Of a DNA stretch of 64,000 bases, positions 6,710 to 43,476 are shown in pieces; position 1 is the first letter of the stretch, and every line of letters begins with the position of its first letter. Source of the DNA: a virus (taxonomy: Duplodnaviria; Caudoviricetes). The notes below the pieces were generated by a model. The model ran no database searches, was not told where the DNA came from, and was given only the letters and a program-made list of their open reading frames with translations. A program made the position numbers and the translations under genes. The DNA lies in the IMG/VR virus record IMGVR_UViG_2799112248_000007, positions 1 through 64,000 of that record. One strand, written 5' to 3'.

Positions 6710-6787
6710 GTTTTTTCTAACCTCCTCTAAATTAAATTAACAACAATAAATATAATTATATTGCTTTTAATAAGTTTTTTAAAATAC

Positions 6788-8115: not shown

Positions 8116-8765
8116 GAGTTTACCTCCAACATAACTAGGCATATATCATGCAGTTACCTACACATGGAAATAACAATCTCTTGTTCTCCATTGTGTAGCT
8201 TATTCATAACACCGAGGTAGATATATCACCTTCATATTATATCATTATATTGTTTTTCATCCATTTTATTAAACGTGAAACTCTGAATCTATTACGTTTC
8301 ATAGATTTCACCTCCTCCCAAAAATAATGTCTATCACTTTTGTTTACCCCATCTTTGGCTGAACTTTTCAACTTGTGACATTAATTCTGTACTTTGTTTT
8401 TCTTCTTGTGGGGTAAAAGGAATAATATTAGGGTGATTTTCCAAATCAATGACCTTTGCTAGTGGCTAGTGCTTCACAATTGCGTAAGAAGTACTTGTGA
8501 TTAGAAACCTTCTGAGATGTGCGTTGCATTTTTTTAATGGCTTCATTACACTCATTCATAAATTTGTAATTTTCTTTGATAAAGTTTTGAGCTTCTACTA
8601 AATTAATCAGCGATTATTTCAGTCTTCTTCCATTTTTTTAGCTAAGAAAAAGTTTTGCTCTAAAGTTTGCATTAAACCTAAAATTTCTTGGATTAAGTGA
8701 TTGCCATTGTTGCGGTTCGTTCTTTTCTTCAATTGTTTCATCCACCATATTATAACTAAACTATC

Positions 8766-8784
8766 ATATAATTATATTACTTTT
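8766..8784 (-). promoter_or_regulatory. 19-bp motif, exact copy
   Basis: ATATAATTATATTACTTTT on + strand, within decayed DNA. Confidence 0.75.
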
Positions 8785-8902
8785 AATGTATTAATTGAGC
8801 GAGAATTCTCATCTGTACAAATGTGTTTATTAATCACTATAATATATACATATTATCATGTTGCTTTTGTAAAGTAAATGTTTTTCCAAAATATTCTAAA
8901 GT

Positions 8903-17354: not shown

Positions 17355-17363
17355 TCTCCGATA

Positions 17364-17382
17364 ATATAATTATATTACTTTT
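17364..17382 (-). promoter_or_regulatory. 19-bp motif, exact copy, immediately upstream of the recJ RBS
   Basis: The TATAAT core lies about 10 nt before the GGAG RBS. Confidence 0.8.
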
Positions 17383-17415
17383 AAACAATCTATGCTGTTT
17401 CTTATTTTCCTAAAT

Positions 17416-24204: not shown

Positions 24205-24482
24205 ATCATAGATAAGAAAAATACATTTGTTATTATATATTATTTTATGGTTTTACCAAATGAAATGTCTAAAATTTTAAAATTCTAGATTATTCAACTT
24301 CAAATAAATTGTCTACTCGTTTTGGGAGACAATACTATAAACATATCTCTTTTTATAGTTAGAACAACAATCATTATAAATACAGAGCCCACTCTATCAT
24401 TATTAGTGACACTTTTGGGTGAGTATAAAAGAAGTTATACCTCACTTTCTGAGTAACCCACCGCTCTATCTACAAACAAATT

Positions 24483-24501
24483 ATATAATTATATTACTTT
24501 T
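24483..24501 (-). promoter_or_regulatory. 19-bp motif, exact copy
   Basis: 3 nt after the stop codon of the Rep-like gene. Confidence 0.75.
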
Positions 24502-24504
24502 AAA

Positions 24505-26280: not shown

Positions 26281-26481
26281 TATGAGAGCTATATGTATAA
26301 TCATTTAAGAAAAGGGACAAAGCTTGTACCTCTTTACCCACTCTTTTTCATTTGGTCACCTAATATTTATGTTGTATTAGGATCACTCGTAAACCAGCAA
26401 GTTCGTTGTCAAAACCCTTCTCCTGCTATGCGTGCATACTTCATCTTTTTACTCGTCAATTATTCTTCTTATTCCATCATA

Positions 26482-26500
26482 ATATAATTATATTACTTTT
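26482..26500 (-). promoter_or_regulatory. 19-bp motif, exact copy
   Basis: ATATAATTATATTACTTTT on + strand, within decayed DNA. Confidence 0.75.
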
Positions 26501-26757
26501 AAATATTAAAATAAAAACATTACATGTCATTATATTTTTTATAAAATGAAAAATCAATACATTTTTTAATAGTTTATTCAAACCAATCTTTTTCTATTTT
26601 TCTAATTCCCAACTAATCTTAGTGGATTTACGATTAATAGCACTTATGATTTTCTTAATATTTTTTACTAGGCTTCACATTGCACAAGCCTACCATTTAT
26701 ATACATCATCTTCTGTTGGTATTGAGTAATCCAATAGAACATCTATTGCTATACCTA

Positions 26758-28643: not shown

Positions 28644-28949
28644 TGTTTAGTTTTTCCCCCAACGATATGTTTTATTTTCTCTTTTGAAGGTATATGTAAC
28701 TATTACTAGAAACGCTTGCCCTATTAGTTACTTTTGACAACATAGTCAATTATAACATCTTGATAGAACATAAACAAGGGCTTCTGTGTCAAAAAGCTAT
28801 ACTAGTAGTAGTCATTTTATCACATATACGCTTGTCGATCCTTAAATATTATTATATTACTTATATAAACATTTAACAACCGACAACCAAATATGTTAAA
28901 ATTAATAACCGATCGTCGTTTAAGGTGTAGTGATAATTTAATATCAATG

Positions 28950-31439: not shown

Positions 31440-32693
31440 ATTACGCTTATTTTGAATCTTCTTAACTTATTTTTTCAGTTCATTTTTAATCACCTTTCCC
31501 TATTCCACTCACTAAATTATATTCAGATTTACAACATCTCAGTCGCCCCTCCAACTTCATTACCATTAATGTAAATATATAACTTTGATAAAATTTTGAT
31601 TTTTTTAGTCAACATAAACCTTTCAGTATAATTTACAGTAGTCGAAAACCTATTTTTTCTATATTTACTGTATCTTTAGGAAGTTTGGTTATAAGCGCTA
31701 ATTCTGTAAATTCTTTTTCGAGAAACTTCTTTTATCGCTGTTATATATGTTAGCTGTTATGATTGAATAATGTCTACCAAAAACAATATCAAAGAAATTT
31801 GATATGTCTATTAAATTGTTCCTATTAAGTATTTTCTTTTCTCTGCTCCTGTTATTTTAAGAAATTGTTCAATTGAAATGCTAATGTTAGCATTCTAATA
31901 ATATTTGCAACTACCATATAAACAAACAATCGAAAATATTATTATATAACTTTAAAATCTACTATATTTTTGATATGAAAGTTATTTAATAATGTTGTTT
32001 CTTCAAAAGTTTTTTGATTCGTACCTTAAAATCTGAGTTACAACCACATTCGCAATTTTCATCACCTTCTATATATATTTCTAATCGGGCATTATTTACC
32101 ACAATTTCAGCATTAATAAAAATTCTTGTTGTGGAGATGGTTCTTGTGCGTATATGTTTGTAACCAAACTTTTCTCAAATTCAGTGTAGTATATACTAAC
32201 AGCTTACCTAGCATTTTCACTTAGTATTTTAGATATCCTTAAATATAGAACCCATCAAAACCAATCTAAGGACAAAACACACAGCGAGTAAAATCAAATA
32301 TATTAATCGAAAGTAAATCATCCCTAGAATATGCCTTATACCCTCACGAATTTATTGAAAAGCGGTCTCTTACACACATAGCGACTATTAAACTTAGCAA
32401 AAATCTTGTGCTACTTCATAGCCAAGGTATGACAAAGTTGTAACTTCGCTTCACCTCATGTTGCTGATCGGAAAATCACGAGTAGTAGATGTTAAACCTA
32501 GTATCTAATAACCCCTTTTTCTTGCTTATATAAGCCATCCGCTTCTCTGTTTGATTTACAACTAAAACCGAATTTCTTGTGCCTATTTTCTTTAAATTTC
32601 CCTGTTGCTAGTAGTTCATCAAACAATTCAAAAGTGTTAATATCTAGGTTTTAGAAGTTGTTAAACAAGTCTTTATCTATTTGTATAAATCAT
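31440..32693 (-). pseudogene. Decayed gene remnants between recD2 and yopQ
   Basis: GGAGA RBS + ATG at 32693 followed by multiple stops; no long ORF over 1.3 kb. Confidence 0.5.
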
Positions 32694-32817: not shown

Positions 32818-35262
32818 TTATTGCAACTTAGCGACTTGCTTAATTACTGTCTCTATATCTCCTTTAGCTTTGTGTAATTCTCTAATCATATCACCTAAAA
32901 ATGTTTGACGGTTTCCACTAGCGTCTGTTCCGATTGCTTTAACTAAAGCAGATGATTGTACAAGTAATACACATTTCTTTGAAGCACGAGTGATTGCTGT
33001 ATAAACCCACTGTCTACATAAAAGTGAATATGCAGAGTAATCTAATACAACTACTACGTTTTTGATAGTTGAACCTTGTATGCGGTGACAAGTTACAGTA
33101 TAAGCTAGTTCCAAACTATCGAGTTCTGATTGTTGGTAAATTTTAATTCCTAGTCCCTCGAAGTTAATCATCAAGCATTGAACTATTTTATTTGTGTTAT
33201 AGTCAATTTTCTCAAACACATCTACAACTATCCCCATGGTACCATTGAATAAATCACCAGTGTTTGATGTTGGAATACTATCATAAAACTCAATTCTTTC
33301 CTCGTCAGTTTCCAATGTTAATAAGTATTCCTGAATCTCCTTTTCAGTTAACCCATTGTCTCGCACATTATAATAATGCTCTAAATCATCATAGTAGCTG
33401 ATTTCGTAGCTATTGCCCTTTACAATAACCTTGTCACCTTCCCTGAAGTCATATCCATTGTAAGACACAAATGGCTTCTCTAGGTCATTAAAGATTGATT
33501 GAGCTAGGTTATTAATTGCTTTTGCTGACATAGCACCACGTTCTTTCATAGCCACAACAACTTGGAATTCCATTAGATCTTGAGGTGTTTTGATATTCTT
33601 TGCTTGACCTCTTAAAACTCTCTCAACGTTTTCGGGCATATCTTCTTTGTTTTGATAGCTGACCATAATCATATCTTTGTTCTTTCCAAACTTTATCATG
33701 CCCTCTTGGTTAGCAGAGCAAACTTGAACACCTTCACGAATCTTTGTAGCTAATTCAATGATTCCTGAATCTTGGGCTTGACGGTGAACTTGATTTAACT
33801 CAATAGTTTTGAAGTATTGTGTTTGAAGTAAATCACGAAGCACATCCCCATGCCCAATACCTGAAAGCTGACCACTATCCCCTACTAAAATTACCTTAGT
33901 ACCATCTTGAATTTTAGATAACATTTGGCTAAACAGTCCTGCATCTACCATTGAACTTTCATCAATGATTATTACATCATAGAATGATTTACCATCACCG
34001 ATTTCTTCATCATCTGACTTCTTCACACCAATTCCAAACGTGCGGTGAATTGTTGCAGAGTCAATATCTTTCGATAAAAGAACCTGTGAAGCTTTACCAC
34101 TCAATGCACATGCTTTATAAGTAAGGCCTAAAGAGTTTAATACCTCGACAATCCCTTTGACTACAGTGGTCTTACCTGTACCACCTTTACCATTTATAAT
34201 AAACACACCGTGCAAAACACTCTCACGAATAGCATTTTTTTGCTCGTCAGTATATTTTACATTTAGCGCCGCCTCAGCGTCTTTGATTGCTTCATCAACA
34301 TCAAAGCCAATTGGTGCTTCATATCTAGTAGCAAGTCTCAGTAAATTTCGTAATGTGTTGCGCTCATTGTTGTACATAAGAATAGAAGAAATTCTCTTAT
34401 CCTCCTGTTGCCAATAGAAGTTTTTCTCACCATCCTCTGACTTCATATAGTTGCGAATATATGTGCCATTAACATCTAGTTCTTTGATAGCTTGTTCTAG
34501 GAACTCCCGCTCATTGACCCACGAATGCCCTTGATTTGCAATTTCATTAAAGTAGTATTCTGAGTAAGCCTTAATGCGTTTTGAACCAAACTTATCTTCC
34601 CCACGTATGAGAGCTACGTTGTCAATTCTTTTGAAGCTTAAACCTGAAACGATACATAGATAATATAAAGATTCTTTTGCTTTGAATAGTGCAATTGTAG
34701 AATTTCCAAACTTCTCAACAATCTTATTCAACATTCTCCCTGATGGGTTCAAGTCAGCAAGTTCCGCCATTAAAGCTCCTAAGTCTTTGTTTCGCTTGAT
34801 TTCTCTTTTAATCTTTAGAGCTGTAGCTTCCCCGAAACCCTTTATTGTAGTTATATCAATTATATTATCTTTAATATCATCTACAATCATATTGTTAGGA
34901 AAGGCTTCAAGAATCAGCTTTGATTGATACTCTGATAGAACAGCTTGTAGGAAGCGCTGTTGTGCTTCAACTGTGTCAAGTGCTTCTATATGAATACGAA
35001 TAATCTCATAGAACTCACCATACTTAGCGTCTGTCTGCAAATCCGATACTTCAATGTCATACTCTTGCCCCACATTCATAGCCAATGGAATGTTACCTCT
35101 AATAACAAAGTTGTTATAGCGATTCAGCTCAGGTTCGAAGTCACCCTCTATCTTAGTTGGTGCAACGCTCACAATGCCCCACATGCTTTCTTCCTTATAG
35201 TACAGCACCTTTGCAACCTTGACTTTTAAGCGGTTAGTATTTTGGTGTAAAATGTTTGGCAA
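32818..35262 (-). CDS. recD2: RecD2-like SF1B helicase
   Basis: GKGGTGKTT, IIDESSM, GDSGQL, VHRQ, YTVTCHRIQGS, YTAITRA. Confidence 0.93.
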   Translation of the reverse strand: MPNILHQNTNRLKVKVAKVLYYKEESMWGIVSVAPTKIEGDFEPELNRYNNFVIRGNIPLAMNVGQEYDIEVSDLQTDAKYGEFYEIIRIHIEALDTVEAQQRFLQAVLSEYQSKLILEAFPNNMIVDDIKDNIIDITTIKGFGEATALKIKREIKRNKDLGALMAELADLNPSGRMLNKIVEKFGNSTIALFKAKESLYYLCIVSGLSFKRIDNVALIRGEDKFGSKRIKAYSEYYFNEIANQGHSWVNEREFLEQAIKELDVNGTYIRNYMKSEDGEKNFYWQQEDKRISSILMYNNERNTLRNLLRLATRYEAPIGFDVDEAIKDAEAALNVKYTDEQKNAIRESVLHGVFIINGKGGTGKTTVVKGIVEVLNSLGLTYKACALSGKASQVLLSKDIDSATIHRTFGIGVKKSDDEEIGDGKSFYDVIIIDESSMVDAGLFSQMLSKIQDGTKVILVGDSGQLSGIGHGDVLRDLLQTQYFKTIELNQVHRQAQDSGIIELATKIREGVQVCSANQEGMIKFGKNKDMIMVSYQNKEDMPENVERVLRGQAKNIKTPQDLMEFQVVVAMKERGAMSAKAINNLAQSIFNDLEKPFVSYNGYDFREGDKVIVKGNSYEISYYDDLEHYYNVRDNGLTEKEIQEYLLTLETDEERIEFYDSIPTSNTGDLFNGTMGIVVDVFEKIDYNTNKIVQCLMINFEGLGIKIYQQSELDSLELAYTVTCHRIQGSTIKNVVVVLDYSAYSLLCRQWVYTAITRASKKCVLLVQSSALVKAIGTDASGNRQTFLGDMIRELHKAKGDIETVIKQVAKLQ

Positions 35263-35323
35263 TTTTATCCCTGCTTTCTCCTGAATATACTTAAACGGAA
35301 CCTTTATATGTCGCTCCTTTAAT

Positions 35324-35342
35324 ATATAATTATATTACTTTT
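35324..35342 (-). promoter_or_regulatory. 19-bp motif AAAAGTAATATAATTATAT (exact copy)
   Basis: Identical to copies at 8766, 17364, 24483 and 26482; heads the left arm. Confidence 0.8.
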
Positions 35343-35496
35343 ATAAACATATTTATATTAAAAACATATATAATTAAAAAATAATATATTTTTCAAAAAA
35401 CACATCCAAAAATTACGAAATAATATATAATGACTAAAGTCGAAATCAACTACAAAAGGTTGGTGAAGTTACATTATATAGGAAGGAAGATTTAGC

Positions 35497-36009
35497 ATGA
35501 CACACATTACTAGTAAGGACTTAATGTTTCAACCCTTCGTCATGAATGACATTGGCGTGGTTGAGCTTTTAATAGAGTTTAGATACAAATATGATGATAA
35601 CCTTTTCTTAGGCGGCGGTAGCACACTTGATGTTACAGGGGTTAAAGCTGTTAATCAAGAAGTGATAGCGACTTATGCTTCATTAGATAGACTAATCAAT
35701 CAATGTAACTTCACGGATCAACAGTTACTTCTTATTAAAATGGTTGAAAAAGGCTACACCCATAGAGAAATCGGTGAAGCCATAGGCATTGAGAATCAGA
35801 ATGTCAAGAAAGCGCTCAAGACCGTTTACAAAGCAGTCGTGAAAGAGAATGAGCGTCAATGGCGTAGAGTGATCTACACAAGCACTCTAGGTTTAAAAAC
35901 AAAACAATGTAACAAGTGCGGTGAACACCTACCTGCAACAAACGAGTTCTATAGTGACAATAAATCAGCAAAAGACCGGTTACTTTCCATCTGTAAAACA
36001 TGTCGCTAA
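35497..36009 (+). CDS. Sigma region 4/LuxR-like HTH regulator with a C-terminal Zn finger
   Basis: FTDQQ..GYTHREIGEAIGIENQNVKKAL; CNKC..CKTC; first gene of the right arm. Confidence 0.7.
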   Translation: MTHITSKDLMFQPFVMNDIGVVELLIEFRYKYDDNLFLGGGSTLDVTGVKAVNQEVIATYASLDRLINQCNFTDQQLLLIKMVEKGYTHREIGEAIGIENQNVKKALKTVYKAVVKENERQWRRVIYTSTLGLKTKQCNKCGEHLPATNEFYSDNKSAKDRLLSICKTCR

Positions 36010-36913: not shown

Positions 36914-37015
36914 TTCAGTAAATGATCGGTGTGATACTGTGTGAGTTTCACCTTTTTTATTCGGATTTTATTAAAAAAACACCTTTTTTCAAATTATTTC
37001 GATAAAACAGTTTGT

Positions 37016-37034
37016 TAAAGTAATATAATAATAT
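37016..37034 (+). promoter_or_regulatory. 19-bp motif variant upstream of the hairpin/tRNA region
   Basis: TAAAGTAATATAATAATAT. Confidence 0.7.
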
Positions 37035-37094
37035 AATATGATATACAAGGTGAGTCACTTACCTATTTAAGCTACTGCTAATAAACTTATTGAG

Positions 37095-37351
37095 CGCAAG
37101 GTGTTATTCCTACCTCTTTAACATCTTGCGAACATATGAGTAAGATAATAACTAAACTCACAAACAAGACAAACACATTAATTAGAATTAAGTAAACATC
37201 TGAGACCCAATCAAGTACTACAAAAACAACTAAAAGAACTTTCGGTGCTACCTACCCTTCGCAAGATAAAGTGAGAAGTTCTTTTGATTTCATAACTTAA
37301 ACCTCCTTAGAATCAAAGTTTGAGCGTAGTTCTTCCCTTAACTACGCTCAA
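37095..37351 (+). ncRNA. Putative structured RNA: tandem hairpins with CU-rich anti-SD loops
   Basis: Four consecutive 8-12 bp stems with loops UUCCUACCUCUU, CUACCUACCCUUC, CAUAACUUAAACCUCCUUA and CUUCCCUU. Confidence 0.5.
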
Positions 37352-37368
37352 TGCTGAAAATCAAATAT

Positions 37369-37445
37369 GCGTCATTAGCTCAATGGATTAGAGCAACAGG
37401 TTTCTACCCTGTCGGTTGGGAGTTCGAATCTCTCATGGCGCGCCA
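37369..37445 (+). tRNA. tRNA-Arg(UCU)
   Basis: Acceptor GCGTCAT/ATGGCGC, anticodon arm ACAGG-TTTCTAC-CCTGT, T loop GTTCGAAT, encoded CCA. Confidence 0.93.
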
Positions 37446-37454
37446 ATAAAATTT

Positions 37455-37529
37455 TGGGCATTTGACGTGGACTACGCCACTCGATTTTCTTTCGAGTATT
37501 TAGAGTTTCGAATACCCTATGCCCTACCA
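37455..37529 (+). tRNA. tRNA-Glu(UUC)-like, probably degenerate
   Basis: GGGCAT/ATGCCC acceptor, CTCGA-TTTTCTT-TCGAG anticodon arm, TTCGAAT loop, CCA end; mismatches in the D and T stems. Confidence 0.6.
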
Positions 37530-37543
37530 AAAAGGATATAACT

Positions 37544-37798
37544 ATGAATTACTATTTTTTAACATATGAAACTAACAACGAACTAGTTAATGAATCTTAC
37601 TTGTATTCTAAGGAATCTGACGATAGTATAGATAACCGTTGGAAGGAAAGAGCATTTGAAATAGCGTTGGATAGATATTTCGATATTTATGATGAAGAAG
37701 CAGAGAAGCTTGAGATTTTTGCTTCAAACACAGCAATATCGAAAGATGATTACACAATGTATAGAATAGATGGTTTAAAAAAATTAGAGTATTTATAA
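37544..37798 (+). CDS. Hypothetical acidic protein
   Basis: 84-aa ORF with an AAAGGA RBS. Confidence 0.65.
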   Translation: MNYYFLTYETNNELVNESYLYSKESDDSIDNRWKERAFEIALDRYFDIYDEEAEKLEIFASNTAISKDDYTMYRIDGLKKLEYL

Positions 37799-37911
37799 AA
37801 AATTTTATCGTATCATTGCATGTTCGACCACAGCCTAATCAGCCAACAGGATTGAATCCTTATTTCACCTGTCTAAGTAAGCAAGCCTCTGTTCAACGCT
37901 CACCCCACTAT

Positions 37912-37984
37912 GCGCTCGATTAGATAGTGACATTACATCTGCTTTTTAATCAAAAAACAACAGTTCGATTCTGTTCCTGAGCTT
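37912..37984 (+). pseudogene. Pseudo-tRNA (Lys-like)
   Basis: Perfect T arm AACAG-TTCGATT-CTGTT, partial GCTC/GAGC acceptor, broken anticodon stem. Confidence 0.5.
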
Positions 37985-38063
37985 AATCTTATGAAGCTAC
38001 CAATTGCGTAAAAGAATAGACAGCAATTCTATTATCGCAGGTTAAAATCTTGTAGGTTGCTCT

Positions 38064-38129
38064 ATGGGAGTTGGACAGAATGTCAACTGTTGCAAAAGCA
38101 GAGTAGATTCAAATCGTATCACCCCTCAT
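38064..38129 (+). pseudogene. Pseudo-tRNA (Cys-like, GCA)
   Basis: CTGTTGCAAAAGCAG anticodon-like arm, TTCAAAT loop; stems damaged. Confidence 0.35.
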
Positions 38130-38130
38130 A

Positions 38131-38215
38131 TTACATCTTATATTCAAGAAACAAAAAGTTAATAAAATTTTTCGTTTACTCTCCTTTCGCTTTGTTTCCT
38201 GAATATAAGGTGTGA
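38131..38215 (+). repeat. 25-bp inverted repeat enclosing an anti-SD loop
   Basis: TTACATCTTATATTCAAGAAACAAA / TTTGTTTCCTGAATATAAGGTGTGA, loop contains CTCTCCTTT. Confidence 0.75.
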
Positions 38216-38357
38216 TTCAGACACAGTAATCTTAAAACAATCTAAAGAATCATTATTATTCTTTAGGGTGAATGTGTCTACTACACAACTGAATATTAAG
38301 ACAATCAATTCACTATTAGAAAGGCGTAACTATTCTGATAGTGTTTTTTGTTGTAAT

Positions 38358-38430
38358 TGGGGCTTAGTTTAGTGATAAAACGTTAGATCCCTAACCCAAA
38401 ATCATTGGTTCAATCCCACTAGCCCCTACA
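38358..38430 (+). pseudogene. Pseudo-tRNA
   Basis: GGGGCT/AGCCCC acceptor, TAGTTTAGTGATAAAAC D arm, GGTTCAATCCC T arm; anticodon stem mismatched. Confidence 0.6.
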
Positions 38431-38470
38431 ATAAAATATGGAATTTACTAGAGCAAAGGAGAAATAAGAA

Positions 38471-43443: not shown

Positions 43444-43476
43444 AGGGTGAGAGGTCAACCTCTCCCCTTTTTATTT
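43444..43476 (+). terminator. Terminator after the tail tube gene
   Basis: AGGGTGAGAGG-TCAA-CCTCTCCCCT followed by T-run. Confidence 0.7.

Follow-up and report, generated by a model that had tools for sequence, protein, structure and literature searches.

What is encoded by a long intergenic region of a phage genome that is poor in open reading frames (ORFs) and rich in hairpins? This question was raised by the gap at 36914-38470 (1557 nt) in a 64,000-nt stretch of viral DNA (hereafter the window), which corresponds to positions 1 to 64,000 of the IMG/VR record IMGVR_UViG_2799112248_000007. The window is part of a 96,204-nt record classed as provirus and, judged by its sequence, belongs to an SPbeta-like prophage of Lysinibacillus; its closest relatives were the prophages in L. 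zambalensis (G001) and Lysinibacillus sp. KCTC 33748 (G002, identical with the IMG/VR record G003), while G000 denotes the phage record itself. The gap sits between an HU-like gene and the YonK/exonuclease genes. A preliminary description had regarded it as a polycistronic cassette of translation-silencing small RNAs (sRNAs), with hairpins that display loops antisense to Shine-Dalgarno (SD) sequences. That observation was partly confirmed as a whole and its interpretation partly supported. The explanation that we favour, to which we give about even chances, is that the hairpins form the structured non-coding 5' leader of a small phage tRNA operon, with mainly cis roles in stability and processing.

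The features of the gap were as follows, where single-hairpin folds were compared with 200 shuffles each.

37010-37040, + strand: phage promoter-like motif GTTTGTTAAAGTAATATAATAATATAATATG, assigned from motif recurrence, with a predicted start at about 37036-37046
37048-37064, + strand: H0, a 7-bp hairpin (GGUGAGU CAC UUACC) a few nt from the predicted 5' end
37095-37130, + strand: H1, 12 bp with a 12-nt loop UUCCUACCUCUU; -17.1 kcal/mol, z -4.78, 0/200 shuffles as good
37131-37230, + strand: linker, A/C-rich, G-poor and unstructured, mean unpaired probability 0.73
37231-37286, + strand: H2, branched, with an 11-12-bp outer stem and an inner part with CUACCUACCCUUC; -14.6 kcal/mol, z -2.39, 6/200 shuffles as good
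37291-37309, + strand: 19-nt stretch CAUAACUUAAACCUCCUUA, antisense to a perfect ribosome binding site (RBS) plus ATG, mostly unpaired (mean probability 0.77)
37320-37351, + strand: H4, a perfect 12-bp stem with the loop CUUCCCUU, 17 nt 5' of tRNA-Arg; -16.8 kcal/mol, z -6.94, 0/200 shuffles as good
37369-37445, + strand: tRNA-Arg(UCU), intact, the sole default call of ARAGORN; Rfam 65.5 bits
37455-37529, + strand: tRNA-Glu(UUC)-like gene, sub-threshold (ARAGORN only at -ps80); a cloverleaf is its minimum free energy (MFE) fold, z -2.58
37544-37798, + strand: acidic ORF of 84 aa, intact in 3/3 genomes
37914-37983, + strand: tRNA-Lys(UUU)-like remnant; Rfam 21.5 bits (37918-37983; gathering score 29), ARAGORN at -ps80
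38130-38215, strand unassigned: H5, a palindrome of about 25 bp with one bulge and a 35-nt loop; -26.0 kcal/mol, z -6.78 on the + strand, 0/200 shuffles as good
38311-38349, + strand: intrinsic terminator with an 11-bp stem, an 11-nt loop and UUUUUU; -17.3 kcal/mol in context, z -4.32
38358-38428 (ARAGORN 38358-38429), + strand: tRNA-Arg(CCU)-like gene with two anticodon-stem mismatches; Rfam 43.1 bits, ARAGORN only at -ps80

The leader between the promoter motif and tRNA-Arg, at 37040-37368 (329 nt), showed a strand-specific fold. Its + strand reached -69.5 kcal/mol (z -4.75) and was equalled by none of 100 shuffles, whereas 37/100 shuffles equalled the minus strand (z -0.38), and the G-U pairs in the leader suit the + strand. 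H0 was found in both the MFE and the centroid structure of the leader and was invariant in 3/3 genomes. H1 was 5 kcal/mol more stable on the + strand than on the minus strand (-11.9 kcal/mol, z -2.32) because of a G-U pair (37101-37124); in contigs of run X8, the change 37129 C>T converts a G-C pair into a G-U pair, so that pairing is possible on the + strand only. In the 96,204-nt record, nine + strand hairpins have an uninterrupted stem of at least 10 bp and a free energy (dG) of -14 or below, and two of them lie within the leader. Both H1 and H4 expose their loops completely (unpaired probability 1.00), and these loops consist of 11/12 and 8/8 pyrimidines, respectively.

All sequences quoted in the preliminary description were recovered in place, and its individual stems fared differently. 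Those at 37095-37130 and 37320-37351 proved robust, as did the 25-bp stem at 38131-38215, apart from one bulge. The stem proposed at 37232-37285 does fold, yet it is branched and only moderately stable. Of the hairpin proposed at 37283-37317 (H3), the 19-mer is present, but the stem is unstable (-3.5 kcal/mol, z -0.60, 54/200 shuffles as good), and 37285 T>A disrupts one pair in G001 and X8. The weak stem at 36966-37007 is no hairpin at all (MFE 0 on the + strand, z 0.78, 200/200 shuffles as good). Exposure of the C/U-rich loops thus held for H1 and H4 and only by half for H2, whose CU stretch had an unpaired probability of 0.48.

Several other identities of the hairpins were considered and rejected. 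H1, H4 and H5 are not intrinsic terminators, as they have no U-tract on the + strand, in agreement with the earlier remark that most stems lack terminator U-tails, and minus-strand H4 is followed by ACUUUGAUUC only. They are not multi-copy elements or mimics of CRISPR (clustered regularly interspaced short palindromic repeats) repeats either, since a search that allowed up to 3 mismatches gave one copy of H1 and one of H4 in each of G000, G001 and G002. An alternative pairing of the H1 3' arm with UUCGCAAGAU in H2, as well as a shared UUGAGCG, was at chance level for its length, partly by our own estimate. Rfam gave no match in the leader at E values up to 10, and H1-H5 were not called as tRNA by ARAGORN (default or relaxed) or Rfam. 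Behind a motif-like sequence lies a further hairpin (43445-43476), which has a CU-rich "loop" and turned out to be an ordinary terminator.

The leader is framed by a promoter motif on one side, and the terminator at 38311-38349 closes the tRNA region on the other. With 0-2 mismatches, the motif AAAGTAATATAATTATATTAT occurs six times in the 96-kb record, at 8783, 17381, 24500, 26499 and 35341 on the minus strand and at 37017 on the + strand; all six copies face downstream genes, with five preceding minus-strand operons, and the copy at 37017 carries two mismatches. Motif recurrence and folding together make a + strand RNA of about 1.3 kb the likely product. The earlier view that hairpins and tRNAs share one cassette agrees with this single + strand unit between promoter motif and terminator, and ARAGORN and Rfam placed the Arg, Glu-like, Lys-like and Arg(CCU)-like genes among the hairpins, which bears out the interleaving. 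Contigs of run X17, which is guessed to be RNA, cover only 37347-37517 and 37696-37876 and have no bearing on expression.

The purine-rich complements of these loops could in principle be real RBSs of small minus-strand genes, which had been named as a finding that would speak against silencing RNAs. A perfect TAAGGAGG with an 8-nt spacer and an ATG does occur on the minus strand at 37309-37291, followed by an ORF of 27 aa in G001 and G002. However, a 1-nt indel shortens this ORF to 13 aa in the window, and one synonymous and three non-synonymous changes separate its versions in G001 and G002; no suitably spaced start codon follows any of the other purine-rich complements, the surrounding genes and the promoter motif are all on the + strand, and the minus strand gave no structure signal. 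Minus-strand genes are therefore highly improbable. Both plus- and minus-strand mini-ORFs in the leader were frameshifted or truncated among the relatives, which counts against a coding alternative in general.

Conservation was assessed with a three-genome alignment (window, G001 and G002), and additional variants were taken from contigs of runs X8 and X10. Variable columns amounted to 2.8% in H1, 2.0% in H2 and 0% in H4, in the spacer and in tRNA-Arg, and to 4.5% in the 84-aa ORF; the linker reached 12.9% (plus 59 gap columns), 37446-37530 reached 9.4% and 37799-38129 reached 16.1%. H4, which has no variable column, shows one 1-nt deletion in G001. The stems are thus better preserved than the degenerate zone at 37799-38129, but not better than tRNA-Arg(UCU), so the earlier statement that they surpass the neighbouring tRNAs was correct in part. 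The hairpins are as conserved as good coding sequence, and not uniquely so. As to the linker, 59 nt after 37217 are deleted in the window relative to G001 and G002, and these additional 59 nt do not fold in either relative (z -0.09 and -0.64).

These figures bear on a more trivial explanation, in which the hairpins are non-functional, being remnants of decayed tRNAs or genes, or palindromes made by chance or recombination in a decaying islet. Decay is evident in the tRNA genes, since only one of about five tRNA-like genes passes ARAGORN at default settings, and indels of 59 nt and about 86 nt separate close relatives; the low variation could also reflect recent common ancestry alone. H5 fits this explanation. 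It is precisely missing from G001, whereas G002 and the contigs of runs X8 and X10 have it, and is best seen as a dispensable palindromic indel polymorphism; it folds nearly as well on the minus strand (z -6.64). Parts of the Lys-like pseudo-tRNA, which lies 200 nt upstream, are similar to its arms (repeats D2 and D6), a hint at an origin by local duplication. The left arm (38130-38165) also matched, over 24-36 nt at 89-96% identity, one intergenic locus in eight Lysinibacillus-family genomes (G001:C74:28624-28660 and seven others); the host locus is no hairpin, the similarity was judged to be chance, and a mobile element was rejected. For the leader, in contrast, H1, H2 and H4 vary 5-8 times less than the adjoining linker and pseudo-tRNA zone, and neither a strand-specific z of -4.75 nor perfect 12-bp stems would be expected of debris. 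We consider it unlikely that the array as a whole arose in this manner.

The tRNA genes themselves carry different marks of use and decay. The codon AGA, which corresponds to the intact tRNA-Arg(UCU), makes up 450/933 Arg codons (48%) in the phage ORFs counted. As read from the alignment, the anticodon stem of the Arg(CCU)-like gene is better paired in G001 (L003), where the loop is UUCCUAA; in the window, with two stem mismatches and a UCCCUAA loop, the gene looks like a decayed copy. The tRNAs Arg(UCU), Glu(UUC), Lys(UUU) and Arg(CCU) are isoacceptors often targeted by anticodon nucleases, so the islet may formerly have served in counter-defence. Among the three genomes, the variable codons of the 84-aa ORF comprised six synonymous and four non-synonymous changes, and no PHROG or Pfam match was found for its product.

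In the explanation that we favour, 37010-38349 would be transcribed as one + strand unit from a phage-type promoter to the intrinsic terminator, in the order of a leader of about 325 nt (H0, H1, the variable linker, H2 and H4), tRNA-Arg(UCU), the tRNA-Glu-like gene, the 84-aa ORF, decayed tRNAs and H5. The leader, about 325 nt long, would become a discrete RNA once RNase P cuts the transcript at the 5' end of tRNA-Arg (37369). Stabilisers at the 5' and 3' ends of RNAs are known from RNA decay in Bacillus and other Firmicutes, and on this basis the 5'-proximal H0 and the 3'-proximal H4 are proposed to shield the leader and the precursor from 5' and 3' exonucleases. Because the hairpins would protect the leader and precursor in this way, H1, H2 and H4 would serve mainly as cis stability and processing modules of the tRNA precursor.

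Several points weigh against this explanation. First, recurrence was the sole basis on which the promoter motif was assigned, and no RNA run is on record as containing the stretch. Second, RNase P release and the stabiliser roles are carried over from general knowledge of Firmicute RNA decay. Third, low variation is not rare in this phage, as 91/896 windows of 137 nt over 10 kb have three or fewer variable columns. Fourth, the relatives are too close for covariation; in the RNAalifold consensus of three sequences, 77/78 predicted pairs had no two-sided change, and the single pair with such a change sits in a minor 5-bp helix of the linker. Finally, near-pure pyrimidine loops (11/12 and 8/8, against a pyrimidine fraction of 0.49 in the leader) are not explained by a cis stabiliser role alone.

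The last point leads to the reading of the preliminary description, in which either the leader itself or fragments freed by tRNA processing would be trans-acting sRNAs, with C/U-rich loops that pair with the SDs of host, defence or phage mRNAs and prevent their translation. Firmicute sRNAs such as RNAIII and RsaE/RoxS use C-rich or UCCC loops to pair with SD regions, and the exposed C/U-rich loops of the window, such as that of H4, are a shared trait. In addition to the H1 and H4 loops, the stretch ACCUCCUU at 37301-37308 was mostly unpaired (0.80), and the loop motifs are unaltered in the relatives. Sites able to hybridise with the SD consensus were 2.5-6 times denser in the gap than in the coding sense strand. 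With a 15-nt SD probe at -10 kcal/mol, the gap had 11 sites, whereas 578 coding windows averaged 1.8 and never exceeded 5, and at -8 kcal/mol there were 12 on the + strand and 4 on the minus strand of the gap. The counts were then set against 200 dinucleotide-preserving shuffles per test.

Gap at -7 kcal/mol: 14 observed, shuffle mean 12.1, 60/200 shuffles as high
Gap at -8 kcal/mol: 12 observed, shuffle mean 6.6 +/- 2.4, 6/200 shuffles as high
Gap at -9 kcal/mol: 7 observed, shuffle mean 2.9, 2/200 shuffles as high
Leader at -8 kcal/mol: 3 observed, shuffle mean 1.7, 53/200 shuffles as high

The anti-SD complementarity of the gap thus shows a marginal excess over shuffles that varies with the threshold, and that of the leader shows no clear excess. 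Since the excess over the gap's own shuffles is small, the signal is mostly the absence of the purine bias typical of coding strands; moreover, 2/11 sites are just CACCUUUUUU runs beside T-tracts. A search for targets did not help this reading, as no loop paired with any of 62 phage initiation regions better than shuffled-loop controls, where shuffled loops were equal or better in 46 (H1), 77 (H2), 25 (H3), 10 (H4) and 75 (H5) of 100 cases. The 19-nt RBS plus ATG mimic has no second copy in the window at up to 3 mismatches, its matches in the phage and two host genomes do not exceed a reversed-pattern control, and the nearest match in a host lies in a terminator-like hairpin between genes rather than at a gene start. 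Two of the proposed modules are also missing, H5 from G001 and H3 from the fold. Compared with RNAIII and RsaE/RoxS, the locus differs in that no targets or extended pairing were found among the 62 phage regions and no Rfam match was obtained, and in an enrichment that is largely compositional. The equivalent gaps of three other SPbeta-like phages (BUCT083, a Staphylococcus SPbeta-like phage and phiCD211) showed no anti-SD excess, and their strong hairpins have no pyrimidine loops. A visual impression that the SPbeta gap itself is rich in anti-SD sites was dismissed, as it held 12 sites against 10.1 +/- 2.8 at -8 kcal/mol, equally on both strands. The H1 and H4 pyrimidine loops are real and exposed, and no test here supports an SD-pairing role for them; we regard trans-acting anti-SD RNAs as an unlikely account of the locus. 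A specific form, in which RNase P would release the leader (about 325 nt) and the leader would use its loops resembling the 16S tail (H1, 37301-37308 and H4) to occupy host or defence SDs early after induction, is judged quite unlikely. If true, it would be a phage-encoded tRNA-linked anti-SD regulator and would give a first function to the non-coding gap of SPbeta-like phages.

The gap has counterparts elsewhere, which allows the favoured explanation of a structured tRNA leader to be viewed in a wider context. In Forrest et al. (2017; PMC5467207), the ORF-free yonN-yonK gap of SPbeta appears as an unannotated and uncharacterised non-coding RNA (ncRNA) region. Our locus is the positional equivalent of this gap because the HU/YonK/exonuclease synteny is shared, and tblastn with the exonuclease retrieved SPbeta-like phages of Bacillus, Clostridioides, Staphylococcus and Alicyclobacillus at 30-40% identity. 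The Spbetavirus BUCT083 has YonO, HU, a 1.6-kb gap without annotated coding sequence, YonK and a metallophosphoesterase, so that, as in the window, an HU-like gene lies upstream and YonK and a metallophosphoesterase/exonuclease lie downstream. Both gaps are of similar size (1.56 kb in the window vs 1.61 kb), ORF-poor and hairpin-rich. However, the BUCT083 gap (L051 3061-4668) holds short ORFs only and has neither tRNAs nor pyrimidine-loop hairpins, whereas the gap of the window adds an 84-aa ORF. In the Staphylococcus phage, a 1.7-kb ORF-poor gap (L053 6180-7873) directly follows the exonuclease. The order in phiCD211 is HU, a gap, tRNA-Ser, one gene and a second gap (L052 2980-3546 and 4311-4946, about 0.6 kb each). 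Non-terminator hairpins of 13-15 bp were found in the gaps of BUCT083 and the Staphylococcus phage and in the first gap of phiCD211, with none in its second gap; the loops of strong hairpins in these phages read, for example, GGGG, AGGUAA and AUUA. The gaps of different phages share no nucleotide similarity (blastn with word size 7 gave nothing better than E 0.08) and no Rfam match. At L051 4414-4480 (+) in the BUCT083 gap, about 190 nt 5' of yonK, we observed a sub-threshold Rfam match to DUF3800-VIII (33 bits, gathering 40.2, E 0.0015). Such gaps are not discussed in the available portions of PMC8270828 and bioRxiv 10.1101/2021.11.22.469490, and listings of the literature on phage tRNA clusters and stable RNAs held nothing on leaders of this kind.

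The position shared by these gaps would also fit processive antitermination, in which leader hairpins would act on RNA polymerase by recruitment or modification, as put RNA or boxA/Nus do, and allow read-through into the long late operon. The leader lies just 3' of the promoter and ahead of more than 25 kb of + strand genes, and all SPbeta-like phages have kept, close to the start of their late genes, a structured gap without ORFs. Moreover, the decamer CUCUUUAACA (37114-37123), which spans the H1 loop and 3' arm, resembles the boxA core of E. coli rrn. Yet this decamer is half buried in the H1 stem and is altered in G001 and X8 (U to A at 37118), the gaps of different phages have no common sequence, and the canonical terminator at 38311-38349 parts the unit from the next ORF, with nothing showing read-through. 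A search for 16S rRNA, intended for comparison with the host rrn leaders, gave no match in G001 or G002. We consider antitermination improbable. In both G001 and X8 the boxA-like decamer reads CUCUAUAACA.

Known systems outside this phage group offer two further comparisons. The tRNA cluster of phage T4 co-transcribes the stable RNAs "species 1 and 2", whose function is unknown. By analogy, our locus may work most like such ncRNAs co-transcribed with phage tRNAs, as both comprise structured non-tRNA RNAs in a phage tRNA unit with release by tRNA processing expected; phage and host are unrelated, however, and expression was demonstrated in T4, whereas that of the locus in the window is predicted. 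The E. coli sRNA 3'ETS-leuZ derives from a tRNA precursor spacer. Likewise, processing of a tRNA precursor by RNase P, RNase E or RNase Z could yield the RNA considered here, although the candidate in the window is a 5' leader of about 325 nt.

The genes around the gap were annotated as follows.

32818-35262, minus strand: RecD2-like helicase (PHROG/Pfam annotation)
35497-36009, upstream of HU: sigma-like protein of 170 aa (PHROG match)
between the sigma-like and HU genes: ORF of 121 aa
36530-36913, directly 5' of the gap: HU-family protein
3' of the gap: YonK-family protein, followed by an SbcD-like exonuclease

The 170-aa protein aligned only to the C-terminal third (276-390 of 393) of PHROG 5767, "sigma factor". 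Counterpart genes at its position in phiCD211 and the Staphylococcus SPbeta-like phage encode about 480-500 aa; these larger proteins had no tblastn match in the 96-kb record, nor was YonO or a large sigma homologue found there by tblastn. In the window, a phage-specific promoter-like motif TTTAAAAGTAATATAAT(T/A)ATAT(T/A)AT, without a clear conserved -35 element, precedes most operons; its minus-sense sites are 6747-6771, 8763-8787, 17361-17385, 24480-24504, 26479-26503, 28846-28870, 31933-31957 and 35321-35345, and its + strand site is 37010-37040. It may be read by the 170-aa sigma-like protein of the phage or by host sigma-A. A longer conserved element, AACGTGTTT.ATACC.TTAC..TAAAAGTAACATAAT....AAAAGAGTGATTTTACAGGGT.AGG, has three + strand copies (G000 60929, 76778 and 85474, the first of them inside the window), and could represent either another class of promoter or a regulatory module that recurs in the structural/late region.

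Searches for further copies of the locus led back to the same clade. HU-based scans retrieved one locus in IMG/VR, two loci in genome_contigs and one metagenome contig, which stops 140 nt past the HU gene. The phage HU was present in 2/370 host-family genomes; a DNA match at E <=0.001 occurred in 88/370 of them, and only G001 and G002 matched beyond tRNA-like or short stretches. A degenerate H4 pattern gave three loci in IMG/VR, one from a known contig and two unrelated. In the phage collection, blastn gave only tRNA-Arg matches (17 records) and tblastn with HU gave no match. HU homologues of 56-77% identity do exist (P0002-P0012).

SPbeta-like phages are a model group, and yet the ORF-free gap of 1.6-1.7 kb close to where their late genes begin has found no explanation. 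The Lysinibacillus locus offers a compact version of this gap, with a promoter motif, conserved + strand hairpins, what appears to be a working tRNA and a terminator. If its pyrimidine loops are regulatory, it would be an example of a phage sRNA made from a tRNA precursor; otherwise, it would be an ordinary structured tRNA leader in a decaying islet.

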